The position numbers and the translations under genes are program-made. The notes beneath the pieces are model-generated. The model did not search any database and was not told the DNA's origin. It saw nothing but the letters and a program-made list of their open reading frames with translations. A stretch of DNA of 55,110 bases from an uncultured Bacteroidota bacterium (GTDB lineage: Bacteria > Bacteroidota > Bacteroidia > UKL13-3), in NCBI GenBank assembly GCA_903901345.1, contig CAIUQQ010000330.1:1-55110 (forward strand), in the 5' to 3' direction. Positions 16,864 to 55,043 of this stretch are shown piece by piece; position 1 is the stretch's first letter, and the number at the start of each line of letters is the position of its first letter.

Positions 16864-17082
16864 GAGGGCTGGCTAAAAAAGCTCTTTTTGCAGTTGCAGG
16901 GATTGGTTTGAGTGTCGTGCAACTGCAAAATGTGCTTTTATGTGTGGTCGGTGAAAAGTGTATGTATCAAAATAAATTTTTATTTAGTTAGAATGTCGGG
17001 TATTAAATTGTCACAACGAAAATATAATAATTTATGTCCTATGTCAAGATTGTTTTTTTGTTTAGTCGCGTCTAAAGCCATT

Positions 17083-17212
17083 GCCTGTAACGTTTTGCAG
17101 CTACCCGAAGGTGGCGATTTTACCACTGAACTTCATTCGGAGAACTACATTTCAAATATACAATAAACTGTCTTACGAAGAACGAATCCGCCACTTTTGG
17201 GTAGATGCTGTT
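17083..17212 (-). repeat. attC-like palindromic site, interrupted by the integrative element (its remaining end is at 39873-39885)
   Basis: TAAC-GTTTT-GCAGCTACCCGAAGGTGGCG...CGCCACTTTTGGGTAGATGC-T-GTT; arms nearly identical to 47059-47184. Confidence 0.85.
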
Positions 17213-17289
17213 GTCATAACCTCTCACCCTTTTTCTTTCTTTTGCTCCTAAACCCTTGTAAAATAAGGCTTTTATCATTTTTACTATCT

Positions 17290-17365
17290 TAATTTGGTGC
17301 AACAAAATGTAACGAAAAGCTTGTTTTGTTATACCTAATGTTGTACCTTTGTACTCTGTTGCACC
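17290..17365. repeat. Left-end integrase arm-type binding repeats
   Basis: GGTGCAACA (17296, inverted), TGTTATACCT (17327), TGTTGTACCT (17339), TGTTGCACC (17357); overlaps the -7 element TACCTTTG (17344-17351). Confidence 0.75.
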
Positions 17366-17394
17366 GCATTGCACAACCCTGTAAAATATTAGAT

Positions 17395-18612
17395 ATGGCA
17401 TCAATCAAATTAGTACTCCGAAATGATAAAGTAGGCAAAGATGGCGAAGCACCTTTGTACCTTAGACTTATCAAAGACCGCAAAACCAAATTCATTTCTT
17501 TAGGTGTTAGGTTAGTTCCAAATGAATGGGACGAAGATAAACAAAGAGTTAAAAAGAACCACTCAAATTCTGCAAGAATAAATGCACTACTGGCACAAAA
17601 GGTTGCAGAAGCTGAAGGGCAAGTTGCAGACCTTGAAAGAAAAAAATCACAGCCATCAGCAAAGAAGTTGAAGGAAGCCATCAAAGGTAAAGATGCAACC
17701 AACTTTTTTGAATACAGCTATGCAAGATGCGAAAAACAGAAAACAACATTATCACCTGCCACTTACCGCAATTACACCAAGTACATCAGTAAGTTTGAAA
17801 AATTTATGGGTACATCAGAAGTCTATTTTGAAGACATCAATGTAACCACCCTTAAAGATTTTGCAAACCATTGTTCCAAAACTTTGAGCAATAATAACAC
17901 TACAATTCACTACTCCTTAACCATCCTTTCCATTATGTTCAAGGATGCACAAAGAGAAGATATAATTCCTACCAGTTTGTACCCCTTTGATAAGTTCAGA
18001 GTAAAGAAAGAAAAGAGCAGCCGCAACTACTTAAACAAAGAGCAATTAGCAGCACTCGAAGCATTAGAAGTTTCGCAATTAGGCAAAGCACAAATTTGTA
18101 AGGATATGTTTTTGTTTGCTGTTTATGCAGGTGGTTTGAGATTTGGTGATGTAATAGAATTGCAATGGAAACATTTTTTAGCAGCAGACAATCGTATTTC
18201 TAAAGTTATCCGCAAAACAGGAAGGCAACACAGTTTTAAAATGGGAAGTGTGGCCATTGAAATACTTGATAAGTACAAGACAAAAAACAGTCAGCCCGAA
18301 GATTTTATTTTTCCAATAATGGAGTACAGCGATTTGTATTTCAAGGATAATTTTTTCAGGTCAAAAGAAACAGAACGCCACAATGCACTAACCAATTTTC
18401 ACCTCAATAATTTTGGAAAGACACTCAAACTTTCGTTTTCGTTGTCCTTTCATCTTAGCCGCCATACTTTTGCCACCAGAGCATTAAACAACGGAATGAG
18501 AATAGAACACGTTTCTAAATTGATGGACCATTCAGGCATAGGCATTACACAGGTATATGCAAAAATCATCAATGAAGAATTAGATAAAGCAGTGGATCAA
18601 TATTTAGGTTAA
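17395..18612 (+). CDS. Site-specific tyrosine integrase (Bacteroidota arm-binding + SAM-like + catalytic domains)
   Basis: N-terminal G.APLYLRL..DRK.KFISLG...P.EWD; catalytic R (GLRFGD), K (IRKTG), HLSRHTFA, MDH, TQVYA; ATG at 17395. Confidence 0.95.
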   Translation: MASIKLVLRNDKVGKDGEAPLYLRLIKDRKTKFISLGVRLVPNEWDEDKQRVKKNHSNSARINALLAQKVAEAEGQVADLERKKSQPSAKKLKEAIKGKDATNFFEYSYARCEKQKTTLSPATYRNYTKYISKFEKFMGTSEVYFEDINVTTLKDFANHCSKTLSNNNTTIHYSLTILSIMFKDAQREDIIPTSLYPFDKFRVKKEKSSRNYLNKEQLAALEALEVSQLGKAQICKDMFLFAVYAGGLRFGDVIELQWKHFLAADNRISKVIRKTGRQHSFKMGSVAIEILDKYKTKNSQPEDFIFPIMEYSDLYFKDNFFRSKETERHNALTNFHLNNFGKTLKLSFSLSFHLSRHTFATRALNNGMRIEHVSKLMDHSGIGITQVYAKIINEELDKAVDQYLG

Positions 18613-36022: not shown

Positions 36023-36101
36023 GGCATTCCCTTTCAGGTCGGGCTTTCCGCTACAATCTTTTGCGAAAAGCAAAAGGATTTCCACTTCAATCCCTAATGC
36101 A
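36021..36101 (+). ncRNA. Structured element resembling the Flavo-1 RNA motif
   Basis: GGGCATT...GGTCGGGCTTTCCGCTACAATCTTTTGC-GAAAA-GCAAAAGGATTTCCACTTCAATCCCTAATGC; nested stems visible; family name from memory of the consensus. Confidence 0.6.
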
Positions 36102-37362
36102 AAAAGAAGCGGTGTTCGTTCCTCACTTGTAGTTTGATACACCCCCCCCAGCCAACCGCACAGAAATACGGCTTAGTGCTTTGCAACCGCACAAGGCAAA
36201 CCCTTCAAAGCACTCTATGGTATTGCAGTCAGTTTTTAACTGTCATACTTTTTGTGTGGGGTGTTGCCAACCCATACAGCACATTGCTATCCTCATTCCG
36301 CTAAAGCTCCATTGCGGTAGCAAAGAGCTGTGCCACCACACCACCCCAAACAAAAAGACATTTCACTCCAACCACCACCACCGTTCCATTTATGCCAGTA
36401 TAAAAACTGCCTGAAGCTAAATAACATAATGTGGCATTATATTACTTTTTCTCCCCTGCTTATGCAAGCATCCAACCGCACAAAAAGTCATATAATAACA
36501 TTATGTTAAATAGCCAATACCATAGCCATTTTGATAAAATGGAAGCCGTATTTCTTGCCAACCCACACCCCCCGAAACCACGCACCCCATCCACCCTTTT
36601 CAGCGGTGCAGGAAAAAATAAAGCATAAGTTGTTTTATTGCCAATGTGCATTCGGTAGCTTCATTCATTCGTGTCCATTCCGTTTCAGCGTTTCGTTCAT
36701 TCCGCTTTGCTCCAATCTCTACACTACCTTCCACTTCATTACCACTCATTTCATTTCAGCAACCTCGATGCACCGCACAGCAAGCGTGGCTCATTCACTT
36801 CACTTCACAATACCCAAGCAGTATTCCATTCCCAACGCAATTGTTTCGTTCTGTTCAATCACCACACTTGCTTTTTCCAACCGCACTTAACTTTTGGTAT
36901 GCTTTATTTTTTCCTGCGACTTGTTAGCCCCATTCCAACGCACTGTATACATCTTAATTATCACTATAAGAATAAGAAAATACAACAAACATTTTGAATA
37001 CAATTATTGATTAGAATTTGAAATACTGAATACATTTTGAAATAACGAAAAGGAAAAAAATAAAAATAAAAAGTGCAGCAAAATTAGGTGGCTCACACAA
37101 GCCCACGCTGATTTAAAAACCAAAAGACTACGGCATAATGAAAGGCAAATAATCTATTTATTTTTTAATAGGTATTTGCCTTTCACCCTTCGGGACTTAT
37201 TCCGTTTCCTTTTGGTTTTTAAGCCTCGCCACCTATGCAAGTGCTTTCTTTTTTTTTCTGTTTTTTTTCTTTGTCAAAAATTTTATTGGTGTTGTGCGAA
37301 GCGTAGCGAAGCACAGTACAGGCAAGGGGCAGAAGCAGATACAAACTTTAAAAGCAAGTATT

Positions 37363-42588: not shown

Positions 42589-42641
42589 TGTCGTTTCGTT
42601 TTACACTGTCCGTTTATGTTTAGCACTGTCGCCATAGCATG

Positions 42642-42777
42642 ACACCTAACGTTTTGTGGGTTTAAGAAGTTGGGGATTTAGGATCAGAAAACATTCAAGC
42701 TACCACAAATGCTGATGCGATGCAGGATGTTCAATTAACCACGAAGCCCGCTTTTTTGCAAAACCCATGTTATGCGT
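42642..42777 (-). repeat. attC-like palindromic site (126 bp from TAAC to GTTA)
   Basis: TAAC (42647)-GTTTT-GTGGGTTT...GGG...CCC...AAACCCAT-GTTA (42772). Confidence 0.8.
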
Positions 42778-43322
42778 TGGCTTTCTCTCCTCGTCAAGTG
42801 TCTGCTGTATGTGATATTCTTGTTCCATTTATTTGTTTGTAAATATATAAATAATTTATCTAAGGGCAATGTGCTTGGGGTGTTACTCATTTTTAGAAGC
42901 GTTTGGCAAAAAGCCAATAAAAAATGCCGTTGAGTTGGGGTAGGGTTGCAAAAATCAAGCTCTTTGCACAGCTTTGGTTGTGCTGTTGGTTCGTGTGACT
43001 GGGCAATGTGCTTAATTTTAGTTTTGGCATGGGTAGCCTTTCTTTAATTTGTCAATTAGTATAAAATTGTCTATGAAAAAACAATGTAAATATAATATTA
43101 CTATTTGTCTTACTGCGTATAGTTTTCTGTCTGCGGATGAGGGGTTTCCTAAAGCGGTTTTATCGTTTCCGTCTGCGGATAATAGATTTGCCAGCTGCGG
43201 CTGAATAATAAAATTGGGCGGTTATCCTTCGACAAGCTCAGGATAAATAGTTTCTTGAAGCGGTTGCCCCGTGTCAAGATGCGGATGATTAATTTTTCTG
43301 TTCGGAAGGATAAAAACTTTAT

Positions 43323-44267
43323 TTATTCTTTAATAAACTTACTCGTATATTTTATGTCTTCATCAATCAATTCAATAAAATATAAGCCCTGTCTTAATTC
43401 TGAAATGTCAATTTGTATATCTTGGCTATTATTAAAGATAGATTGCTTTTCTAATTGTCCCGGCAAGCTATAAATATTTATTTTTAGGGAACTAAAATAA
43501 TTATCCAAACTTATACTTAACTTGTCTTTAGTTGGGTTGGGGTAAATAGCAATTGAATTTTGGTTAACTAAATCCATAACTCCAACATTATCAAAATCGC
43601 AAGGTTTATTTGGATTAGCAAAATTTGATTTAAAGTTGTAATTATTTGAACTGTAACACCGAAGATAGTCTCCACCTTCAGGTATAGCCAATTGCTCAGT
43701 AAGTACTAATAAATCTCTATTATTATCATTGTTGGTATTTATTAAATTTTCAGTATAATAGCCAAAAGGTGAACTATTGCTATAAGGTATTTTATTTTTT
43801 TCAGTTATTGAAAAACTAAAAACTTTTAAACTATCGTTATTCAATACATTTAGCTTTTTATATTCAATTTTTGTGATTTTTACATTAATCTTGATAATGG
43901 TATCTTTATGAATTAAATTTGAATTTGAAAAAAAGCAATCAATTGATATTGTATCATTTATTTTGCAATTTGTTTTAAATAAAGTATTTTTATTTGAGTT
44001 TCTCCAATAGTAAATATAATTCGTATCTTTATTTAGAAATATTGTCCTATCCGTATTATCGTCTTTGGCTAAATAGACGATTTTACTATAAATAATGCTA
44101 TTAATTGTTGTGTCTAAAAGACAAGTATAGGAATAAACCCCTTCAATACTTGTAATACCGCTTGAAGACCTCAGCCCATAATACCACCTTGAACCTACAG
44201 ATGCAAATTGAGCTCTTAACAATGAAGCAAAGAGCAAAGCAAAAATTAAAATATTGTATTTTTTCAT
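43323..44267 (-). CDS. T9SS type A sorting domain protein
   Basis: Signal peptide; IYPNPT...IDISELRQGLYFI...KFIKE. Confidence 0.88.
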   Translation of the reverse strand: MKKYNILIFALLFASLLRAQFASVGSRWYYGLRSSSGITSIEGVYSYTCLLDTTINSIIYSKIVYLAKDDNTDRTIFLNKDTNYIYYWRNSNKNTLFKTNCKINDTISIDCFFSNSNLIHKDTIIKINVKITKIEYKKLNVLNNDSLKVFSFSITEKNKIPYSNSSPFGYYTENLINTNNDNNRDLLVLTEQLAIPEGGDYLRCYSSNNYNFKSNFANPNKPCDFDNVGVMDLVNQNSIAIYPNPTKDKLSISLDNYFSSLKINIYSLPGQLEKQSIFNNSQDIQIDISELRQGLYFIELIDEDIKYTSKFIKE

Positions 44268-45796
44268 AAGAGTATCATTTTTTTATAGAAAGTACCTTTA
44301 TTGTTTTTAATAACTAAAAAAGCAGCACCCGAATAGTTAAAAGTATTTTGAATAGTAATATTTGTTTGATTTGCTTTTAAGTTTTGATAATATAATTCTT
44401 TACCCAAAGCATCAAATATATAAATTTCGTTTGATGAATTAAATAAACTTTGGTTTTTAAAACTAATGGTAAATGATTCTTTTGCAGGATTTGGGTAAAC
44501 TTCTAGTTGTGAGTTGTCATTTAAAATATGTTCTATACCGCCATAAACATTGGGTTTGCAGCCAGGGATAATGCAACCGTTTGTGTCAACTTTTAGTAAC
44601 CAAGCATCGCCTTCAATAGTACCTGTAGAATCAAATTCTTTTATACGATTTTGATTTACTGAAACACCACAGAACAAAAATCCATTATCTATTTTGTAAA
44701 AGTTATGTACTTCGTTATATAAGAAATAATGTTTGTATAAGTGATACCACTCTATCACTCCATTTTCTGGCGATATTTTGCTAAATTGAACAAGCCTTGA
44801 CATTGTATCGTTGACAAAAGTATCGACATCTGCTGTAGCATATAAAGCATTTTTATAAGTTATCATTTTTCTAAATTCATAACTTTGGTATTTATCATAT
44901 ATTTTTTCAAATTTCATATTGCCATTTTCATCTGATACATTTAGGTACGCAAATGTAGCCGTTGCTTTTTGGTAGTTAGATGTAAAACCATAATTGTAAT
45001 AATAGTTATTTATTTTAACACCATTATTTAAATAACCACTAAAATAATATTTTGAAGTATCTGTATAATCATTCTGCCAAAGGATATTGCCATTATTGTC
45101 AATACCTGCATGTGTTATTCTTTGTTGCCCTTCAAAACCTTTTTCCCCAGCTATCAAATAACCATAATTTGTTTTTAACACAGAAGTATAACGACACTGA
45201 AAAGGATATACTTTAAGCCATTTTATATTGAAATCAAAATCAAATAAAGCCACAAAAGCAGGAGAATAAACATAGCTGCCTGTATCGCCTGTAATTATGT
45301 ATCCCTCGTCAGTTTTTAAACAGCTATAAAGTAAATATTTTCTGTAAGGAAAATCTAATTTCTTTACTGTATAATTTTGCCAATTATTACTTGTTGAAAC
45401 CAAAGCATAATATCTTTGTTTATATATACTTAGATAATCGTTATAGGCAGTGTCTAATACTGTGGCGCACATAAACCGATTGTTCTCAATTTCAAAAGGT
45501 ATTCCATAAGTGCTATATATATCCCAATAGTTTTTATGTAAACGACTTACTTCTATTAAAGTAGCATTTTTTAAACAAACTTTATGAAGTAGTATGCGAG
45601 AATAATAATTTGAATCCTTTGCAGTGTCATCAAATACAGTTGTTAATAAAAAAATAGTATCAGAAGAATTGTCAGAATAAATATGAGTGGATGATTTACC
45701 CCCTTTTTCAAAATTAAATAGTGTATCTAAATTAGTTTGCGAGTATAGTGTATATGAGCATGTGCTGAATAAAATAAACAGTAATAAGTATTTCAT
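44264..45796 (-). CDS. T9SS type A sorting domain protein (beta-propeller-like)
   Basis: Signal peptide; D.NGNI.W repeats; DAWLLKVDTNGC; VYPNPA. Confidence 0.88.
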   Translation of the reverse strand: MKYLLLFILFSTCSYTLYSQTNLDTLFNFEKGGKSSTHIYSDNSSDTIFLLTTVFDDTAKDSNYYSRILLHKVCLKNATLIEVSRLHKNYWDIYSTYGIPFEIENNRFMCATVLDTAYNDYLSIYKQRYYALVSTSNNWQNYTVKKLDFPYRKYLLYSCLKTDEGYIITGDTGSYVYSPAFVALFDFDFNIKWLKVYPFQCRYTSVLKTNYGYLIAGEKGFEGQQRITHAGIDNNGNILWQNDYTDTSKYYFSGYLNNGVKINNYYYNYGFTSNYQKATATFAYLNVSDENGNMKFEKIYDKYQSYEFRKMITYKNALYATADVDTFVNDTMSRLVQFSKISPENGVIEWYHLYKHYFLYNEVHNFYKIDNGFLFCGVSVNQNRIKEFDSTGTIEGDAWLLKVDTNGCIIPGCKPNVYGGIEHILNDNSQLEVYPNPAKESFTISFKNQSLFNSSNEIYIFDALGKELYYQNLKANQTNITIQNTFNYSGAAFLVIKNNKGTFYKKMILL

Positions 45797-45810
45797 TTGG
45801 AGAAAATTAA

Positions 45811-45844
45811 ACCGTTCCTTTTGAAAAATTTCAAAAGGAACGGT
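45811..45844. terminator. Intergenic hairpin
   Basis: ACCGTTCCTTTTGAA-AAAT-TTCAAAAGGAACGGT. Confidence 0.55.
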
Positions 45845-45856
45845 AAGTTAGAATTA

Positions 45857-46351
45857 CTATTTATTTACTACTAATTTCTTAACCGAAATCAAATTGTCAT
45901 CTGCTCTTAGCTCTATAAAATATACACCAGCATTTAAAGATTGTAAGTCTATTTCATATTGACCACTCATTTGTTTTAGTTCAATTGCTTTAATAATTGC
46001 ACCTGTAATTGATGTAACAACTATTTTAGCCGATTTATATGGTTTCACAAATAAATAATCACAAGTGGCAAAATTTGTTGCAGGATTAGGATATAAATTT
46101 AGTAAATTATTGTTAGAAGTTGAATTTTTTGTTTCGCTAACGGTGGTTAATTCACTACCTCGTTTGCCCAAACTACTTTCAATTAATACAGGTCTTTCTA
46201 CATAAAATTCATTAAATACCATACCTAATATAGCCTTAGCATAATATGATGTCGTGGTGCTACTTGTTGCTATGTTTCTGACATTTTGTTCCTGACTTGA
46301 GCTTAATTGAAAAACATTTTTGTTTGCTTTTTTCAAATCTAAAAGCTTCAT
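45857..46351 (-). pseudogene. 3' fragment of a T9SS type A gene; its apparent ATG lies within an attC-like remnant
   Basis: No signal peptide; LYPNPA...GVYFI CTD; the start codon abuts the half site at 46343-46394. Confidence 0.65.
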
Positions 46352-46394
46352 TTAACCACTGAACCGCCAATTTCTTGTAGGTGCTGTTAGCGGT
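46343..46394 (-). repeat. Half attC-like site (one arm only)
   Basis: TTAACCAC...CCGCCAATTTCTTGTAGGTGCT-GTTAGCGGT, homologous to the right arms of the other sites; no partner arm. Confidence 0.75.
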
Positions 46395-46417
46395 TCGTTG
46401 TTTTTTGTCGTCAGTTT

Positions 46418-46996
46418 TCATTTAAGGTTTTCTCCCAATTTTTCAATTTTGTCTAACCATTTTTTTCGTAAGGAAAGTTCTGTGTTTTTTATTGGTCCAA
46501 CATAAGTTACCTTAACTGGCTTTATTCCACAAAATTCCAAAGTGGATTTCTTTAACTGGTTAACGCTTGGTCGCCCAAATGCAAACCAATAATACCAAGA
46601 AGGTTGGTCAAGGGTTGTAATAATATGAGCCGTCCTACCTGCTAATAGTTTGTCCCACCACACAGAATTTTCACGATACTGAAATGCAAAGCCCGGTAAA
46701 AAAAGCCTGTCAATAAAACCCTTTGTTACGGCTGGAAGTCCACCCCACCAAACAGGATGAACCCAAACTAAATGGTCAGCCCATTTGATTTTTTCCCAAG
46801 CATCTAATAAGTCAGGTTCTAATTCTGTTCTTTTTTGGTAACCAAATTGCAAGTTTGGATTGAAAACTAAATCTTTAATCACAATCTCCTTAATATCTGC
46901 TCCTGAAGTTAATGCACCTTTTTTGTATGCTTCGAAAAGTCCAAAATTATAACTATCACTGTTTGGGTGTCCGTTTATGATGAGTATATTTTTCAT
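46418..46996 (-). CDS. NAD(P)H-dependent oxidoreductase (flavodoxin-2 / quinone reductase family), single-gene cassette
   Basis: ILIINGHP, ADHLVWVHPVWWGGLPA..KGFIDR, GFAF. Confidence 0.92.
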   Translation of the reverse strand: MKNILIINGHPNSDSYNFGLFEAYKKGALTSGADIKEIVIKDLVFNPNLQFGYQKRTELEPDLLDAWEKIKWADHLVWVHPVWWGGLPAVTKGFIDRLFLPGFAFQYRENSVWWDKLLAGRTAHIITTLDQPSWYYWFAFGRPSVNQLKKSTLEFCGIKPVKVTYVGPIKNTELSLRKKWLDKIEKLGENLK

Positions 46997-47053
46997 TAAA
47001 TGTATTTAGATTATTTGTCTGTTAAATGTTTACTCTGTCGTCTTTTTACAATG

Positions 47054-47189
47054 ACCGCTAACGGTTTGCAGCTACCCGAAGGGCGGGACTTTTACCACAA
47101 AACTTGATTTGAAAAACTAAAGTTTGATTAACCACAAAACTGTCTTTGGAACACGAAACCCCGCCTTTTGGGTAGGTGCTGTTACAAGC
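47054..47189 (-). repeat. Intact attC-like palindromic site (126 bp from TAAC to GTTA)
   Basis: TAAC (47059)-GGTTT-GCAGCTACCCGAAGGGCGGG...CCCGCCTTTTGGGTAGGTGC-T-GTTA (47184). Confidence 0.88.
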
Positions 47190-47328
47190 TGCCCTTCTTT
47201 CGGTCGTGGTTTGTCTGTCCGCTGTGTTGCTCTGTCTGTGCGGTTGGAAAGGCATACTCTTTTGCAAGCTTTGGCTCGTGGGCTGGCTTGTGTGGCTTGC
47301 AAATGTGTATGACTTTAGCGTTGGCATT

Positions 47329-48990
47329 TTATACTGTCAATTTTTTAATGAGTTCAATTAATTTGGTCATTTGAGTTTTGCCTTCGCTGTCGTCATGCAG
47401 GTTGATTAGTTTAGCTGTCTCCCTTGCTATTAAGTTTTTTGAACTGCTACCAAGTGTTTCAATTGTTTGTTTTTCAATGTCGGCATAGTCTGTAAACGAA
47501 GCTCTCATTGTTGTTTCAAAGTCTGTCCCGAATACACAGAAACGGTCAGAGATTGCCCAAGTGTCAATTCCTAAAATTCCGTCCAGTTCTTCGTCTTTGA
47601 TACCAATTGCTTTTAATGCGTCCTTACGTTTAAAACCTTTTTCATCATCCTTTTTATAGTCGTTGTCAAAGCAAATGAAAGTTGGTATTTGATATAAAGT
47701 AAAAAGTCGCCACCATTTTGCAAGATTACCTTTACCGCCAACTCCTATAATTTCAATTCCAAATTCTGTTGGGTCAAAACCAAGTTTTTCAAAATAAATT
47801 GGCAAAGCCAATTCCTCTGTTGGACCTTCAACAAGGACAATTTTATTTGCGAAAAAACCCGATAAAATATGCGATGTAGAATTGTTTGCATAAAATGGCA
47901 CAATGGTTTCTTCCTTTGTCTTGTGTGGATTAGATGCAGTTTTAAGGCAATGGTTATATAATGTAGTAGCGTTTTGGTTTATGTTTAAAGTAGTTTCGGA
48001 ATCTTTGCGAATGAGATTAATACCTTCAATATAATTCAAGTCCACAAAATAAGGGCTGTGTGTTGTTAAGATGATTTGCAAACCATCTTCTGCCATTTTA
48101 AACATCTTTTTTGCTAACCATTTTTGAGCCAAAGGATGCAAATGGGCTTCGGGTTCATCAAGAATAAATAATAAGCCTTGACCTAAAAATGATTTAGCGT
48201 AAGCATGAGCAAAAGACAAAGCCAAAATTTGTTGCTGTCCTGTTCCTAATTCTTCGTAGGCTCTTGTTTCGCCATCTTCGGTAGGGTGGACACGTAAAGT
48301 TTTAAAGTAGTTACTTGGGTCGTATGCCGAAAAATCAAATGCCAAAGCATGGGTCATGTTAGACAAAACTGTATTAGCAATTGAAGACATATTTTCGCTG
48401 AAAACATTAAACTCCTTCACTTCCATGAATGTAGTTTTAATACTTTCAAAAAATCCTTTTAGTTTTTCAACTCTGGCTTTATCGTCTGTTAGCTTGTCGT
48501 GAAAGGCTTTTGTAACTTTTGACAACAACGTGTATTTTGAAGAATAGCTAAGTTGAAAGTTTAAATTTTGTTCTGAATTTACAACAATACAAAGAAGTTC
48601 TTCACGCAAGTTTGTACTTACATACATATTCTCTCTCCCGTCTTCTGCTTGAATTGCGTTGAAATTATTCTCTTTTCCTTTTTGTGCTTGAAATTTAAAG
48701 CCACCGCAAGAAAATTCAGAAGACCTGCCAAGCCTTGCACTAAAGCCAGTAACGGTTGCCTCAACTATTACTTGGTTATTTGTGTCTCTTTTATAATGGT
48801 CGTAATCCTCAAGTTTTTTATACTTCGGGTGAAACTCACCAAACATCAATTCAATTGCACGAATAATATTTGATTTACCTGAATTATTTTCTCCAATTAA
48901 AACCACAGGTTTGTTTTCAGGAAAGTTAATTACTACTTGCTCTGAAATTGAACGGAAACCTTCTATTGTAATTTGTTTTAGTCTTGGCAT
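47329..48990 (-). CDS. OLD-family ATP-dependent nuclease (ABC ATPase + TOPRIM)
   Basis: GFRSI, GENNSGKS, LGTGQQ, LDEPEAHLHP, TTHSP; TOPRIM VLVEGPTE, GGK, FDND. Confidence 0.9.
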   Translation of the reverse strand: MPRLKQITIEGFRSISEQVVINFPENKPVVLIGENNSGKSNIIRAIELMFGEFHPKYKKLEDYDHYKRDTNNQVIVEATVTGFSARLGRSSEFSCGGFKFQAQKGKENNFNAIQAEDGRENMYVSTNLREELLCIVVNSEQNLNFQLSYSSKYTLLSKVTKAFHDKLTDDKARVEKLKGFFESIKTTFMEVKEFNVFSENMSSIANTVLSNMTHALAFDFSAYDPSNYFKTLRVHPTEDGETRAYEELGTGQQQILALSFAHAYAKSFLGQGLLFILDEPEAHLHPLAQKWLAKKMFKMAEDGLQIILTTHSPYFVDLNYIEGINLIRKDSETTLNINQNATTLYNHCLKTASNPHKTKEETIVPFYANNSTSHILSGFFANKIVLVEGPTEELALPIYFEKLGFDPTEFGIEIIGVGGKGNLAKWWRLFTLYQIPTFICFDNDYKKDDEKGFKRKDALKAIGIKDEELDGILGIDTWAISDRFCVFGTDFETTMRASFTDYADIEKQTIETLGSSSKNLIARETAKLINLHDDSEGKTQMTKLIELIKKLTV

Positions 48991-50477
48991 TCTTCCGTTT
49001 TAGTTTCAAAAGTTTCATTGAACATTGCTTTCATTAATGTTTTGCCATGGTTGTCAAGGGTTTCAATTTCTTGACTTAATTTCAGGCATTTGTTCATTAG
49101 CAATTCAACTTTCTCAATTATTATTTTTTGTTCCTCTCTTGGTGGAAGTGCAAAAACAAAATTTCTTAAATAAGTTTGGCTAATGTTTGGTTGCGACATT
49201 CCCCAAGAATCAGAAATCATTTTTGCTCGTTGTGCCATTAAGAAATAGAACAGATATTTTGTTTCTATGAATTCATTAAAAAAGAAACCGCAAATTGCTT
49301 GGTTTGTGCTTGCATCTCTGTTTAAGATTGAAAGTTTCCCTGCCGTTGCTCCATACATTGCTATTAGTAAAGTTCCTTTTGGAAACAATGTTGCAGAAGA
49401 TTCCTTTAAACCAATTTCGGAAATTTTTTCCTCTGATTCTGCATCCAAATAAGTGTCGGTTAATTCGCCTGATTTGTACCAAGTTATGTCGCCAAACCAA
49501 TAGTTTGCATTTGCTCTTAATGGTGTGCCACCAGAAGTTGTTGAATACAACTCACCAAGTCTGCACCAAATCCAACTTTCAGGTAATTTGAACTGAATAT
49601 CTGATTCTGGAATTGGTTCAACCTCTTTTTCTTTCTTTAATTTCCCTTCTTTAACTAACTTTTGTTTTTCGGCTTTAATACGTTTTAGAAGTTCTGTTGC
49701 AGTTTCAGTAAAAGAATTTTGTTTTCTCCATTCTTTAGTGAGTTTACCATTTATAGCTTCAAGAAGAATTGATTGTTTTAATTGTGATACTAGATTTAAT
49801 TGAAAAGAACTTTCAAGTTCAATTTGTTTGCATTGTTCATAATCAGAAATAGCTTTATCTATATCTGAAATTAACTCTTCATACCCTTTGACATACTCAT
49901 TATTTGAAATTTTTATTGCATCTAGTTGTTTTTCCAAACTACATTTCGGCAGTATTAAAGATTTCAATGTATTTGCGTTTACACTAGGTCTAAATTCTCC
50001 TTCATTTAAAGAAACAATTTGTGACCAATAAACATAGCTGTTCAAAAACAGATTTAAAAACAATGGCTCGGCATCTTCATTTGCTCTGATACGAATCAAG
50101 TAGCCAGCATAAATTGAATGCTCTGGTGGGTCTGTGATTAAAAAACTTTTTCCTGTTGTTCCACCTGTCCTTGCAATTAGTAAATCATTTGTGTAAAGCA
50201 GGTATGTATCTTCGCTATCACAATCGCAGAAAGGAACTGTTTCCCAATCCACTTTCCCGTCCGTAATATCACTTATTCGCAGAAATTTATTTTTACCACT
50301 TAACAATGCAGAAGCATTATAACCGTATTGAGTGCTTTCTATTAGTGATTTTAAAGGAACAGTCTTGTTACTTTCTTCAAATAAATGACGTAAAATAATT
50401 GTATTCCTTATTTGCTTTTTTATTTCATCCTCATCTTTTTGAAAAGTAAGTGGAATGAATTTGAATTTTAAACTCAT
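48978..50477 (-). CDS. hsdS: Type I RM specificity subunit
   Basis: Two TRDs; LKQSILLEAINGKLT..WR, LPESWIWCRLGE, SGGTP, PPREEQ..I. Confidence 0.9.
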   Translation of the reverse strand: MSLKFKFIPLTFQKDEDEIKKQIRNTIILRHLFEESNKTVPLKSLIESTQYGYNASALLSGKNKFLRISDITDGKVDWETVPFCDCDSEDTYLLYTNDLLIARTGGTTGKSFLITDPPEHSIYAGYLIRIRANEDAEPLFLNLFLNSYVYWSQIVSLNEGEFRPSVNANTLKSLILPKCSLEKQLDAIKISNNEYVKGYEELISDIDKAISDYEQCKQIELESSFQLNLVSQLKQSILLEAINGKLTKEWRKQNSFTETATELLKRIKAEKQKLVKEGKLKKEKEVEPIPESDIQFKLPESWIWCRLGELYSTTSGGTPLRANANYWFGDITWYKSGELTDTYLDAESEEKISEIGLKESSATLFPKGTLLIAMYGATAGKLSILNRDASTNQAICGFFFNEFIETKYLFYFLMAQRAKMISDSWGMSQPNISQTYLRNFVFALPPREEQKIIIEKVELLMNKCLKLSQEIETLDNHGKTLMKAMFNETFETKTEECQD

Positions 50478-51901
50478 ACACTTAATTCTTTTAGTAAGTC
50501 ACTTATAATTTGTTGGCTTTTTTGAATTTTTGAAAGTATGTCGGCTCTATTGTATTCAATAACCTCTTCAACAATATTTTGGTTTTTTGAATCTAAATCA
50601 AAGTTTTTAAGGTCTTTGATATTTACTTTCCAAGATAAGTTGCTATCAGTTCTATTATTCCACCATTCAATGATTGGCTTGAATTCATCAAATTGAATGG
50701 GTTTTGTTTTAGAATAACTTTTCTGTCCTTCAGGTAGTTTATGTTCGTAATACCAAATATCATTAGTTGGTGCGCCCTTTTCAAAAAACAAAAGATTTGT
50801 TCCTACAATTGCTGGGAAAAATGTGCTTTGCGGAAGTCTTATTATTGTATGCAAATTGCAGTCAGTCAATAATTTTTCTCGGATTCTTGCCTTTACACCT
50901 TCGCCTGTAATTGAACCATCGGGCAATACGATTGCACATCTGCCATTTGGTTTTAATAACTGGATCATAAGAATCACAAACAAGTCTGCCGATTCTTTGC
51001 ATCTATAAGTTGATGGAAAGTTTGTTTCTACTCCGTCCGCTATGCTTGCTCCAAATGGTGGATTTGCAAGGATAACATCAACCTGGTCTTTCTTGCCAAT
51101 GCTGTTGTACTCTTTTTTTAAACTGTCAATGTAATGATAATCGGGAACATCAATTTCGTGAAGTATCAAATTAGTCAAGCCTAATACATAAGCAACTGGT
51201 TTTAATTCCCAACCAGTTATTGAATTTTGTAAAAGTGCTTCGTCATCAACTGTTTTTACATAAGTATCTCTTACGTGGTCAATTGCCGCTGATAAGAAAC
51301 CGCCTGTACCTGCTGCTGGGTCTAAAACTTTTTCGCCCAATTTTGGGTCGGTCATCATTGTCATTAATTGAGTTACGGCTCTTGGCGTATAATATTCGCC
51401 TTTGTTTCCTGCATCTCTTAACTCCTGCAAAATGCTTTCGTAAATATTTCCGAAAACGTGTTTGTCCTCTGATTTTGTAAAGTCAATTTCATTGAGTTTG
51501 TTGATTACCTTTCGCATTTCATAACCACTTTTCATGTAGTTATTTGTGCCATCAAAAACCTCCTTTACTATCATTGCTCGTTTCGGATTTGTTGAGCTTT
51601 TTATTTCTCTTAGTGATAGAAACAGTCCTTTATTTGTCAGTTCGTTGCTATCAATAAAATTTATTAGTTCATCACCAGTAATTCCTTCTGGATTTGTTGC
51701 CCAATTTCTCCATTGAAATTTTTCGGGAATTACAGAAACATAGTTGTCTTTTATTACTTCTAATTCTTGGTCTTTGTCGTCCATTATTTTAAGAAACAAC
51801 ATCCAACCCAATTGCTCTAAACGTTGTGCATCGCCAGAGATTCCTCTGTCTTGCCTCATTATATTTCTTATGTTGCTTATTACTGCACCTACATTTGCCA
51901 T
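50474..51901 (-). CDS. hsdM: Type I RM methyltransferase
   Basis: MRQDRG.SGDAQRLEQL.WMLFLK, GEYYTPR, LDPAAGTGGFL, ANPPFG. Confidence 0.95.
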   Translation of the reverse strand: MANVGAVISNIRNIMRQDRGISGDAQRLEQLGWMLFLKIMDDKDQELEVIKDNYVSVIPEKFQWRNWATNPEGITGDELINFIDSNELTNKGLFLSLREIKSSTNPKRAMIVKEVFDGTNNYMKSGYEMRKVINKLNEIDFTKSEDKHVFGNIYESILQELRDAGNKGEYYTPRAVTQLMTMMTDPKLGEKVLDPAAGTGGFLSAAIDHVRDTYVKTVDDEALLQNSITGWELKPVAYVLGLTNLILHEIDVPDYHYIDSLKKEYNSIGKKDQVDVILANPPFGASIADGVETNFPSTYRCKESADLFVILMIQLLKPNGRCAIVLPDGSITGEGVKARIREKLLTDCNLHTIIRLPQSTFFPAIVGTNLLFFEKGAPTNDIWYYEHKLPEGQKSYSKTKPIQFDEFKPIIEWWNNRTDSNLSWKVNIKDLKNFDLDSKNQNIVEEVIEYNRADILSKIQKSQQIISDLLKELSV

Positions 51902-51904
51902 TTC

Positions 51905-54289
51905 TTATGCCGCTTTATAAAGTTCGTTTTCCAATTCTTTTAATGCTTGTATGTAATTTTCTTTTCCACCAAAAGCATTAATTATTTCGAGTGGTGAACC
52001 TAATTTATTTAATGGGTCAAGTTTTAAAACATCTAAACTTTCAATAGTGAGTAAATCATCATCTGCGTATTTGTCAAGCAAACTTTTGATTACAGATTGT
52101 GCTTTCTCTCCGTATTTAGTAAAGTAGTTTCTTTTCTTCACGTTGTTTGCTCTTTCCTTTCGTGTCAATGGTTTTGCTTCAAAAGCAACATGACAAATCA
52201 AATCAAAAGGGTCAAAGTCTTTTCCGATTTCTTCCTTTAAGGCTTCAAAGAAAATTCCTTGTTGTTCCAATGCTTCAACGATTGCTTTTTTCTTGTCAGC
52301 ATTTTTCCATGAATTCAAAAAGGTTTCAAGCGTTGCGTATTTTTCAATTACATTTTTCTTGGTGTAATCTTTCAGACTTTCGGTAATTATTCGTCCGTCA
52401 GCACCTAAATATTGGACTCGTTCATTTACAATTTTAACTTCAACACCGTTTACTCTTATTTTTTCTCTTGGATTTGGTTCTGCTACTATAAAACCACCAC
52501 CAATTACAGTTGGATATTCAGGCGTAGGAAAAACGACATCACCACCATCAACCACATCAACAATTGGTTCGTCTGTTACTTCATCGTCTGTTCCCGAAAT
52601 ATCGTCATCTTCTGTAATATCTTTAATCATTACAGGGTCGCCATCAAAATTAGGGTCTGCAAAAAGATTGGTTACATTTCTAAAATCCATTATCGTGAAA
52701 TATGTTTTACCATATTCTTCATTAATTCTTGTTCCTCTACCAATAATTTGTTTGAACTCTGTTGGTGAACCGATATTACTATCCAATACAATGAGTTTGC
52801 AAGTTTGAGCATCAACGCCAGTAGTCATTAATTTTGAAGTTGTCGCAATAACAGGATAGCGTTCACTTGGATTTATAAAACTGTCTAATTCTCTTTTCCC
52901 TTCTTCATTGTCGCCTGTAATCTGCATTACATACTTATTGTTTTGAGCAACCAAATCGGCATTGGCGTTAGCCAATGCGGTTCGCATGCCTTCGGCATGC
53001 TCAATGTCAATGCAAAAAACAATTGTCTTTGCGAAACGGTCATTTCCTTTTAAAAATTCCGTTATTTTTCTTGCAACTAATTCTCTTCGTTCATCAACAA
53101 CAATGCTTTTATCAAAGTCAGTTCTGTTGTAAATTCTATCTTCAACAGGATTTCCGTTTTTATCTAAAAAGCCTTTTGTTGGTCGCCAACCTTCCGCATC
53201 AATATCAAGAGTTACTTTAATTACCTTGTAAGGTGCAAGAAAACCATCGTCAATACCTTGTCTTAACGAATAAGTGTAAACTGGTTCACCAAAATAATGA
53301 ATGTTTGAGGTTTCGGTTGTTTCCTTTGGTGTGGCTGTCATACCCAAATGAGTTGCAGTTTTGAAATAGTCTAATATTTCACGCCACTTGCTATCTTCTT
53401 TTGCACTTCCTCTGTGGCACTCATCAACTACAATTAAATCAAAAAATTCAGGACTGAATTGTTTATAAGCATCATCTGATTTACTGTCTGACAAGCCTTG
53501 ATACAAAGCTAAATATACATTGTAAGCGGTGTCAATTTGTTTGTGTTTAATGATTGTCATGGCATCTTTGAAATGCCTGAAATCACCTCTTGCTGTTTGG
53601 TCTATGAGTGAAGTTCTGTCTGCTAGAAACAGAATTCGTTTTTTTGCTCCGCTTTTCCAAAGTCTGTAAATAATTTGAAACGCGGTATAGGTTTTTCCTG
53701 TTCCAGTTGCCATTACTAAAAGAATTCTGTCTTGCTTTTTCGCAACTGCTTCAATAGTTCTGTTAATGGCAATTTGTTGGTAATACCGTGGGGAACGACC
53801 AGAGCCATCTAAAAAATAGTCGGTTGAAACTACGTTTTCAACTTCTTTGTCTTCTATGCCTTTGTATTTTTTATATTTCTCCCAAAGTTGTTCAGGGCTT
53901 GGGAATTCGTCATTTGAAATTTCCGTTTCAATGTCTCCGCTTGTAACTGTTTTGTCGTGGAAATAAAAACCGTCTCCGTTGCTACTAAACACAAAAGGAA
54001 TGTCCAACGTGTTGGCATAACCTAATGCCTGTTGAATTCCAGCTTTTACTGAATGATTGTTGTCTTTTGCCTCAATGATTGCAATAGGTACGTTTGGCTT
54101 ATAAAACAAAATGTAGTCGGCAAATTTCCGTTTTCCTCTTGCTGTAATTTTACCCTTCACATAAATGCGTCCGTCAGTAAAAAATATTTCACGTCCAAGT
54201 TGAGTGTGTTCGTCCCAACCCGCCTTTGTCACGGCAGGAGTGATAAACTTCTCTTTTATGTCGGCTTCTGATAAGTCCTTTTTGTTCAT
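51905..54289 (-). CDS. hsdR: Type I RM restriction subunit (EcoAI/EcoEI-like)
   Basis: ADYIL...IIEAK, MATGTGKT, DECHRGSA, MTATP, TGVDA, QIIGRGTR, DPFDLICHVAF. Confidence 0.95.
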   Translation of the reverse strand: MNKKDLSEADIKEKFITPAVTKAGWDEHTQLGREIFFTDGRIYVKGKITARGKRKFADYILFYKPNVPIAIIEAKDNNHSVKAGIQQALGYANTLDIPFVFSSNGDGFYFHDKTVTSGDIETEISNDEFPSPEQLWEKYKKYKGIEDKEVENVVSTDYFLDGSGRSPRYYQQIAINRTIEAVAKKQDRILLVMATGTGKTYTAFQIIYRLWKSGAKKRILFLADRTSLIDQTARGDFRHFKDAMTIIKHKQIDTAYNVYLALYQGLSDSKSDDAYKQFSPEFFDLIVVDECHRGSAKEDSKWREILDYFKTATHLGMTATPKETTETSNIHYFGEPVYTYSLRQGIDDGFLAPYKVIKVTLDIDAEGWRPTKGFLDKNGNPVEDRIYNRTDFDKSIVVDERRELVARKITEFLKGNDRFAKTIVFCIDIEHAEGMRTALANANADLVAQNNKYVMQITGDNEEGKRELDSFINPSERYPVIATTSKLMTTGVDAQTCKLIVLDSNIGSPTEFKQIIGRGTRINEEYGKTYFTIMDFRNVTNLFADPNFDGDPVMIKDITEDDDISGTDDEVTDEPIVDVVDGGDVVFPTPEYPTVIGGGFIVAEPNPREKIRVNGVEVKIVNERVQYLGADGRIITESLKDYTKKNVIEKYATLETFLNSWKNADKKKAIVEALEQQGIFFEALKEEIGKDFDPFDLICHVAFEAKPLTRKERANNVKKRNYFTKYGEKAQSVIKSLLDKYADDDLLTIESLDVLKLDPLNKLGSPLEIINAFGGKENYIQALKELENELYKAA

Positions 54290-54453
54290 GTTCTACTTTT
54301 TATTGTCGGTCGGTGCGGTGGCAAAATTTAGCTCTTTTGGTTTTGCGAAGCGTTGGCTTGTGTGTCGGGCAAAACCAAATGTGCTAAATGTGCGGCTGGC
54401 TTTTATGTCGTTTTTCTGTCTGTTCATGTTTACCACTGTCGTCTTTTAGGGTT

Positions 54454-54535
54454 GCTTGTAACTTGTTTATATAGGAATGTTTAACCCTAAAACCTTCCTA
54501 TGTCTATCCAAAATTGGGTTGTTTTAGGAATGTTT
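54454..54535 (-). other. attI-like primary recombination site heading the cassette array
   Basis: Minus strand ...TATAAACAA-GTTACAAGC with no upstream palindromic arm; direct repeats TAGGAATGTTT (54472, 54525) and an inverted copy (54490-54500). Confidence 0.65.
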
Positions 54536-54542
54536 CTATATT

Positions 54543-54573
54543 CAAACATACCTATTATTTTTATATATCCAAA
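54543..54573 (-). promoter_or_regulatory. Bacteroidota housekeeping promoter firing into the array (Pc-like)
   Basis: Minus strand TTTG-N19-TATGTTTG matches the -33/-7 consensus and spacing. Confidence 0.7.
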
Positions 54574-54769
54574 TCTTCAATTGGACTTTTTATTTCACTT
54601 ATTTATTACCCAATTAAAAATCAAAGTTAACCAATAATTTTATGCTTTTAGGTAGAATTCAAAATAAATAATAATACTATGTTTACGTAATCTAAAGCAT
54701 TCTTCTCTTAAAAGGTAATATTTACTTCATTTTGGGGTAAGTTTTGGGATTTTACGCTTAAAAGTCCAT

Positions 54770-55043
54770 TTTTCCACCCAGCAAAGGAGCTTTTCCACCC
54801 AGCAAAGGAGCTTTTCCTCCCAGCAAAGGAGCAAATTCCACCAGTATTGGAGCAAATTCCACCAGCAAAGGAGCAAATTCTACCAGCATTGGAGCAAATT
54901 CCACCAGCATTGGAACAGATTCCACCCAGCAAAGGAGCTTTTCCTCCCAGCAAAGGAGCAAATTCCACCAGCATTGGAGCAAATTCTACCAGCATTGGAA
55001 CTTTTCTTCCCTACAAAATTCCTTTTCCTCCTTACAAAGGAAA
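54770..55043. repeat. 21-bp tandem repeat (about 11 good and 2 degenerate units)
   Basis: Units TTTTCC(A/T)CCCAGCAAAGGAGC and AAATTC(C/T)ACCAGCATTGGAGC; one 22-bp unit. Confidence 0.9.

Follow-up and report, generated by a model that had tools for sequence, protein, structure and literature searches.

Does an imperfect palindrome that closes on AAC/GTT boxes, bulges on one side only and concentrates its G.T pairs on one strand serve as a recombination site, and if so, for what kind of enzyme? The question is raised by a repeat in the genome of an uncultured Bacteroidota bacterium, which a first-pass annotation of the sequence had read as a single-stranded DNA hairpin recognized by a recombinase subfamily different from that of classical integrons. 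We analyzed the repeat in a stretch of 55,110 nt (the window; Table 1), in the other contigs of the same genome, and in the genomes of related and more distant Bacteroidota.

Table 1. Features of the attC-like sites and cassettes in the 55,110-nt window
Feature	Position	Strand	Basis or content
Complete attC-like site, compensated stem	17084..17219	+	Covariance model 120.7 bits, folding
attC-like site, mismatched (chimeric) arms	42643..42778	+	Covariance model 89.9 bits, 12 of 20 stem pairs
Segment between the half-site and the chimeric site	42779..46338	-	Three genes encoding T9SS-sorted proteins
3' half of an attC-like site, 5' arm deleted	46339..46394	+	Model positions about 79-135
Second cassette	46395..47054	-	One flavodoxin-like/FMN-reductase gene (46418-46996)
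Complete attC-like site	47055..47190	+	Direct reading, folding, covariance model 142.6 bits
 Flank		+	4 nt
 TAAC box	47059..47062	+	TAAC
 Spacer	47063..47067	+	GGTTT, 5 nt
 5' arm	47068..47087	+	20 nt
 Central region		+	About 72 nt
 3' arm	47160..47179	+	20 nt
 Lone spacer base	47180	+	T
 GTTA box, then flank	47181..47184	+	GTTA
First cassette	47191..54458	-	7.3 kb; type I restriction-modification hsdR, hsdM, hsdS and an OLD-family nuclease
attI-like site, array start	54459..54560	+	Flank-TAAC, then TTGTTTATATA and repeated AGGAATGTTT motifs
Array integrase gene remnant	54561..54599	-	Last 12 codons, SEIKSPIEDLDI, and stop; stop codons upstream

The claim concerned above all the copy at 47055-47190. 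On the plus strand its TAAC box pairs with GTTA, the five-nucleotide spacer faces the lone T, GCA (47068-70) pairs with TGC (47177-79), G47071 stands opposite G47176, and a 16-bp stem follows (47072-87 with 47160-75) that contains G.T pairs at 47078.47169 and 47081.47166. This is the fold that had been claimed for 47059-47184, and direct reading and folding of both strands agree with it: as single-stranded DNA the plus strand reaches -21.8 kcal/mol (z -2.83, equalled by 1 of 200 shuffles), versus -16.1 kcal/mol for the minus strand (z -0.71, equalled by 45 of 200). The purine-purine mismatch that was part of the claim is present at 47071/47176, but in the wider family it characterizes only one stem type; a mismatch at stem pair 4 or 5 occurs in 93 of 104 copies, as G.G at pair 4 in 50 of them and, in another stem type, as C.A at pair 5 in 33.

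Two further copies in the window had been described in the same terms. The site at 17084-17219 has a degenerate GTT box (GTTG) and folds at -17.1 kcal/mol (z -2.24), versus -13.4 kcal/mol for the opposite strand, bearing out the claimed common architecture with stem changes that preserve pairing. For the site at 42643-42778 the claim of a kept length and bulge with a different stem stands in its first part: the boxes, the 5-versus-1 spacer and the outer 8 bp are kept, but the inner stem is unpaired, leaving 12 of 20 pairs and a z of +0.83, no better than shuffles.

The site at 17084-17219 lies about 25 kb beyond the chimeric one. A CTnDOT-type integrase gene (17326-18612; 428 aa, Arm-DNA-bind_5) starts approximately 100 nt past its GTTG box and is followed by about 20 kb of plus-strand genes (17219 to about 39000), so that an integrative island may have inserted into or beside this site and split the array. 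We also considered whether the repeats could be att scars left by a tRNA-targeted island. This was dismissed, since the window contains no tRNA and its 428-aa integrase belongs to a different family, with 22% identity to the array integrase described below.

About 24 to 27 copies of the element were recovered in this genome with BLAST, nhmmer and R1, a covariance model built from an 11-copy MAFFT alignment, and several of them lie at contig ends. On contig C9 four copies are spaced 780 to 980 bp apart with one or two open reading frames between them, and one relative (L099) carries at least 15 copies in 16 kb. R1 detected the element in 37 of 41 relatives' genomes, representing 13 of 17 families, and in 47 of 121 genomes sampled phylum-wide. 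When the cassettes of C9 were searched in 119 family genomes, mostly the repeat itself was returned. A two-gene cassette of C9 (9343-10082; also L036:710-1506) has homologues of 81 to 83% identity in two genomes (L120 in G052 and L121 in G002), and no attC-like elements adjoin either homologue; in G052 the homology reaches the 6-nt flank and ends just before TAAC, with an ordinary terminator next. These homologues may bear on how cassettes arise.

We assessed covariation and geometry on an alignment (A2) of 110 matches, 106 of them distinct. Across a 29-pair structure, 83.1% of cells are paired versus 67.8% in shuffled alignments (0 of 500 shuffles reach the observed value), although A2 was fitted by a model that already includes 17 of these pairs, and the shared ancestry of the copies makes the shuffle comparison overstate the signal. 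A control that retains this relatedness, in which partners were slid by 1 to 3 columns, leaves only 40 to 49% of cells paired. Of the 20 stem pairs, 18 show compensatory changes on both sides; the stems fall into five or more types, and the arms are nearly free of insertions and deletions. RNAalifold recovered the same stem independently on the MAFFT seed alignment and on A2; in neither alignment did it find a conserved helix in the central region, which is conserved in sequence. Some sites (L036:518-658, L043:1501-1642, L071:833-974, and others in L050, L085 and L088) have a perfect palindrome of 15 to 17 nt inserted in this central region, for example TCCGCTAGCTAGCGGA.

The asymmetric loop is likewise a trait of the family. 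The spacer after AAC is 5 nt long in 98 of 104 copies (GTTTT in 63, GGTTT in 20), and the spacer before GTT is a single nucleotide in all 104, a T in 102 of them. The first spacer base forms a G.T pair with this lone T in 98 of 103 copies, so that the spacer can equally be read as a T-rich bulge of 4 nt. The arms are 20 and 20 nt long in 96 of 104 copies and have no bulged or extrahelical stem base, the surplus bases being located solely on the AAC arm. The core boxes are TAACG in 92 of 110 copies and TGTTA(T/G/C) in 92 of 110; the wider RYYYAAC consensus is loosely followed. In 18 of 99 copies the two arms belong to different stem types and match at 9 to 14 of 20 pairs, for which homologous recombination within the conserved center is the best explanation; these copies cannot fold, and many sites may therefore be dead.

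Three wobbles with G on the 5' arm are fixed in the family, being G.T in 104 of 104 copies, in 74 of 104 (with G-C in 24 more) and in 98 of 103; over all cells, 322 G.T or T.G pairs stand against 66 A.C or C.A. The mean folding energy of the whole site is -21.15 kcal/mol for the modelled strand versus -19.18 for the other, a difference of -1.97 that favors the modelled strand in 79 of 107 copies; for the arms alone the values are -18.10 and -15.41 kcal/mol, with the modelled strand better in 90 of 110. The remaining 28 of the 107 whole sites have an opposite strand whose predicted fold is as good or better, which counts against an explanation by strand choice. In each of 59 cassettes the longest open reading frame runs antisense to the modelled strand, so that the favored strand is the "bottom" strand in integron terms. 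The first-pass annotation had placed the G.T bias on the strand antisense to the genes and had staked its reading on covariation and strand asymmetry across many copies, both of which the enlarged alignment contains. They favor the reading as a putative ssDNA-hairpin substrate.

G.U wobbles are also typical of RNA, and together with the sequence conservation of the central region they could point to an antisense small RNA or a 3'-untranslated element. We regard this as very unlikely: none of the 59 cassette genes is encoded by the strand that bears the wobbles, which is antisense to them, there is no conserved central helix, and the flanks follow a recombination rule (see below) and not a transcript rule. 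A search of Rfam 15 with positions 46990-47340 at E values up to 10 assigned the element to no family; the only matches were two to microRNAs, attributable to chance. At the gathering threshold, the sole Rfam match in the whole window is a Flavo-1 RNA (RF01705) at 36033-36105 on the minus strand (63.8 bits; gathering score, 42), away from the element. Judging by this RNA and by the T9SS sorting domains, the host genome is a Bacteroidota genome of the flavobacterial type. A second family of hairpins, 60 to 70 nt long, is present at 16877-16939, 47248-47316 and 54326-54389, with the common motifs GCTCTTTTG ... AAATGTGC and variable stems; these sit within cassettes, where they follow either the leader, ahead of the gene start, or the final gene.

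The recombination rule is visible in the sequences that flank the boxes. The 6 nt past GTTA pair with the 6 nt before the TAAC of the next site at 4.60 of 6 positions on average, with at least five pairs in 70% of cases (n = 53), as illustrated by the second cassette of the window, whose flanks GACCGC and GCGGTT are complementary at 5 of 6 positions. The two flanks of one and the same site match at 2.25 of 6 (n = 97) versus 2.22 for random pairs. Such pairing across cassettes marks a circular cassette in which the two ends join to make up the R box, and in two cassettes shared between genomes the homology is lost exactly at TAACG or TGTTA. These observations also bear on the notion of a selfish element of the MITE or REP kind, framed by terminal inverted repeats and inserted between genes, to which the length of 136 nt, the inverted termini, the many copies and the frequent assembly breaks at contig ends would all be suited. 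Because the flanks of a copy neither pair nor duplicate with each other but pair with those of the next copy, the stems covary instead of being near-identical, array copies share one orientation relative to the genes, and each array terminates in an attI-like site next to a gene for an integrase, we consider a selfish repeat exceedingly improbable.

That attI-like site defines the start of the arrays as a conserved flank-TAAC followed by TTGT(A/T)TATA and then by lineage-specific repeats. In 13 of 16 cases its flank pairs with that of the closest attC-like site, and in the window the flank of 54459-54560 pairs at 5 of 6 positions with that of 47055-47190. The order attI-left, genes, hairpin body was found in the window, in C9 and in a relative (L108), from which it follows that a cassette consists of TTA-flank, leader, one or more genes, flank-TAAC, body and G, with the crossover in the gene-distal box. 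The travelling partner of the hairpin body was examined with seven informative pairs of shared cassettes, which partly disagree: among five pairs with a common gene-side flank, only two have identical adjacent arms, and in the high-identity pair L081/L114 the homology ends at TGTTA, on the gene side, so that linkage of the body to the upstream gene is borne out only in part.

Several further regularities surround these boundaries. The attI-like sites (54472-54560 in the window; contigs C9, C147, C187 and C311; relatives L108, L092 and others) have the core TAAC-TTGTWTATA in common and differ in motifs of 9 to 11 nt, direct and inverted (AGGAATGTTT, AACCCTGAT, GGTCCCAT/GAGACC and GGATGCAT), which suggests integrase lineages that have their own attI and hold attC-like sites in common. 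Cassette 5' ends (47003-47058, 54404-54458 and 42590-42646, together with 107 relatives' sites) share a leader: counted from TAAC, position -7 is a T in 90% of sites, and positions -12/-11 are TA in approximately 69%; a TGTCGTC-like motif lies 19 to 23 nt from TAAC in 21 of 107 sites and anywhere within 70 nt in 26 of 107. Judging from this leader, the conserved part of the site may reach beyond the hairpin. Just past the integrase remnant, at 54751-55020, at least nine copies of a 21-nt unit are arranged in tandem within a small minus-strand open reading frame.

In relatives, the arrays are adjoined by a gene for a tyrosine recombinase of 345 to 385 aa, co-oriented with the cassettes, and the attI-like motif lies 88 to 98 nt past its stop codon in 5 of 8 homologues with at least 60% identity; two of the other three have less than 110 nt of downstream sequence. 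The best family match of this protein is NF040815 (226.1 bits, above the cutoff of 220), which NCBI names "site-specific tyrosine recombinase/integron integrase." It scores 210.9 bits with TIGR02249 (IntI), below the cutoff of 265 and in two pieces (positions 2-177 and 238-315), and no protein above that cutoff is encoded in any of the 41 genomes or in a search of the present one. In an alignment with VchIntIA (2a3v), 17 residues (query 251-267) stand opposite 59 (chain 184-242), and the array integrase thus lacks the additional, or I2, domain. The catalytic residues R202, K227, H292, R295, H318 and Y327 show no variation across an alignment of 33 sequences, and a predicted structure (pLDDT 82) has its best matches in 2a3v (Foldseek, 5.7e-17) and XerA. 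In sequence, 4a8e (7.5e-43) and 5hxy are among the best matches. An extra N-terminal domain of approximately 60 aa, predicted as beta-beta-alpha-beta-beta-alpha, matched no Pfam family at E values up to 10, and the best hit of a fold search (the C-terminal domain of T4 MotA; Z 5.3, rmsd 2.7 over 59 residues) is within noise.

The enzyme is present in several copies per genome in relatives. In the assembled contigs of this genome, where an intact array integrase is absent, its remnants amount to 34 codons on C9 and 12 at 54561-54599, the latter identified by comparison with the C terminus of L091 and the C9 remnant. On C9 (7311-7625, L119) a segment of about 310 bp bounded by 28-nt inverted repeats occupies the place expected for most of the integrase gene, of which the last 34 codons are left; this looks like a MITE-like insertion or replacement. 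The genome also encodes a separate Xer-like protein of 322 aa on contig C344. The proposal of a different recombinase subfamily is thus backed by the recombinase found beside the relatives' arrays, which falls below the IntI cutoff and has no additional domain, and which, judging from its position and sequence, would be the enzyme that acts on the site.

The similarity to XerA, which exceeds that to IntI in the family scores, calls for consideration of recombination in duplex form, as at dif/pdif or lox-type core sites, by a Xer-like enzyme, with the hairpin serving some other purpose, for instance to terminate transcription or to insulate cassettes from one another. Each hairpin does lie directly after a gene, and integron integrases are still capable of duplex recombination, as stated in PMC4792948. 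On the other hand, duplex arms need no mutual covariation over 20 bp that are 70 nt apart and come in at least five stem types, G.T wobbles that are invariant on one strand (104 of 104) are meaningless in duplex DNA, and on the sense strand no T-run follows the hairpin, which also belongs to no Rfam family. We therefore give the duplex reading little credence. The array integrase shares with archaeal XerA and the bacterial XerCD chromosome-dimer resolvases its best sequence and family scores (NF040815, 4a8e, 5hxy) and differs from them in lying beside cassette arrays and not at dif, in its several copies per genome and in its extra N-terminal domain.

Much of what we observed is common to classical integrons. 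There, too, an imperfect palindrome is closed by AAC/GTT boxes (R'' RYYYAAC / R' GTTRRRY), cassette genes are co-oriented, flanks are complementary across cassettes, attI lies beside the integrase gene, the crossover is gene distal so that each array site is a hybrid, and the strand antisense to the genes folds better. In length and within-lineage sequence conservation the sites resemble the homogeneous 120- to 130-nt VCRs of the sedentary chromosomal integrons of Vibrio, and the array integrase has the IntI/Xer fold of VchIntIA (PDB 2A3V). Its gene is transcribed in the direction of the cassettes, unlike that of class 1 integrons, which is divergent from them. Like CALINs, the window is a cluster of sites with no functional integrase, retaining 12 codons of the gene; unlike CALINs, which are defined by the classical attC model, it reveals the family of the lost integrase through the remnant and the attI-like site.

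It follows that these could be ordinary attC sites served by a classical IntI, their spacer and wobbles being host-specific decoration devoid of mechanistic meaning, and two published observations would fit: classical bottom strands are also more stable, by 2.12 kcal/mol on average (PMC5027507), and IntI1 tolerates very diverse attC sites, one of them from a Polaribacter phage (PMC9892861). The classical site, as PMC5027507 defines it and in agreement with the canonical features given in the first-pass annotation (a folded bottom strand, a near-symmetric spacer and extrahelical bases), has its AAC in R' of the bottom strand and a spacer that measures 5 to 6 nt in both arms, while its two or three extrahelical bases belong to the arm that faces AAC. 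Here, the spacer is 5 versus 1 nt, extrahelical bases are absent, the AAC arm holds the extra bases, and G.T wobbles and a mismatch are fixed in addition. As noted above, none of the 41 genomes has a protein above the TIGR02249 cutoff, and the array recombinase, with its extra N-terminal domain of about 60 aa, lacks the additional domain. Moreover, the element occurs in 37 of 41 relatives, whereas the IntegronFinder 2.0 survey reports a single complete integron in Bacteroidetes (PMC9024848). An ordinary attC identity is accordingly improbable in our judgment.

According to PMC4792948, IntI reads the extrahelical bases through its I2 domain, the two are described as co-evolved, and CTXphi/XerCD is named as the only similar reaction that has neither. 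The attP(+) forked hairpin of CTXphi is indeed the nearest parallel within that account, as it combines a Xer-type enzyme free of an I2-like domain with a stem free of extrahelical bases, and its single strand, once folded, imitates a duplex core site; use as ssDNA would be the corresponding step in the element described here. CTXphi borrows the host XerCD and integrates a whole phage at dif, unlike the present system, a gene-capture platform with its own recombinase gene, an attI-like site and multi-cassette arrays. Searches of openly accessible full-text literature turned up neither this family of sites nor an integrase that lacks the additional domain together with cassette arrays in Bacteroidota. 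In our reading, the system is a variant of the integron principle that these publications do not describe.

We consider it likely that the element, 136 nt long, corresponds to attC in an integron-like system widespread in the Bacteroidota and acts as a bottom-strand ssDNA hairpin in which bulge and wobbles determine strand choice for a Xer/IntI-like integrase. Under this model the strand antisense to the genes (plus in the window) would be extruded or otherwise exposed as ssDNA and form the hairpin, one integrase monomer would bind the R box (flank-TAAC with GTTA-flank) and another the first turn of the stem, and after a cut in AAC on the 5' arm the junction would be resolved through replication, as in integrons. 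Tyrosine recombinases cut at the 3' edge of their binding arm, and the overlap region lies 3' of the cut. Combined with a crossover in the distal box, this rule predicts a cut of the bottom strand between TAA and C. The overlap on the cut arm would then be 6 nt (C+GTTTT), a normal length, versus 2 nt (T+G) on the other arm. As the top strand has a single A after AAC, an overlap of normal length would exist 3' of AAC on the bottom strand only. The one-sided bulge may thereby mark the right strand and at the same time deny the second monomer a workable cleavage site, while the wobbles, which become A.C on the other strand, and the mismatch at pair 4 or 5 would weaken or distort the hairpin of that other strand alone. 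Bulge and wobbles with mismatch might thus be two devices in place of the classical extrahelical bases, and a Xer/IntI-like enzyme devoid of the I2 domain would fit sites that offer no extrahelical bases to read. An array integrase that behaved by the rule for IntI would instead use the other strand as its substrate, which counts against this scheme.

A more tentative extension, which we put forward as a possibility of somewhat less than even standing, is that the system represents a second form of single-stranded cassette recombination, either independently specialized or else ancestral, in which an integrase devoid of I2 relies on bulge and wobbles to choose the strand and block the second cleavage. 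Should it branch below IntI, it would correspond to the "pre-I2" stage sought by the chicken-and-egg problem of Escudero et al. 2016.

Integron biology has been built on one enzyme-site pair, that of the I2 domain of IntI and the extrahelical bases it reads. The natural system described here keeps the integron logic of attI, cassettes, hybrid boxes and bottom-strand bias and dispenses with both members of that pair, so that strand choice, avoidance of the second cleavage and the question of whether domain or site evolved first all become testable through it. Its compact one-sided-bulge design could also widen the toolbox of structure-specific recombination. The first cassette of the window gives an impression of what such arrays may carry: its restriction-modification system is complete, its OLD-family nuclease is of the AAA/TOPRIM type, and as a defense cassette it is far above the typical size of integron cassettes. 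Cassette arrays of the Bacteroidota are probably missed by standard integron finders, and surveys of gene flow in this phylum may be incomplete, given cargo such as this 7.3-kb restriction-modification and OLD nuclease cassette. If our reading is correct, integron-type gene capture would be common in the Bacteroidota, a phylum in which surveys with the classical model report almost none.
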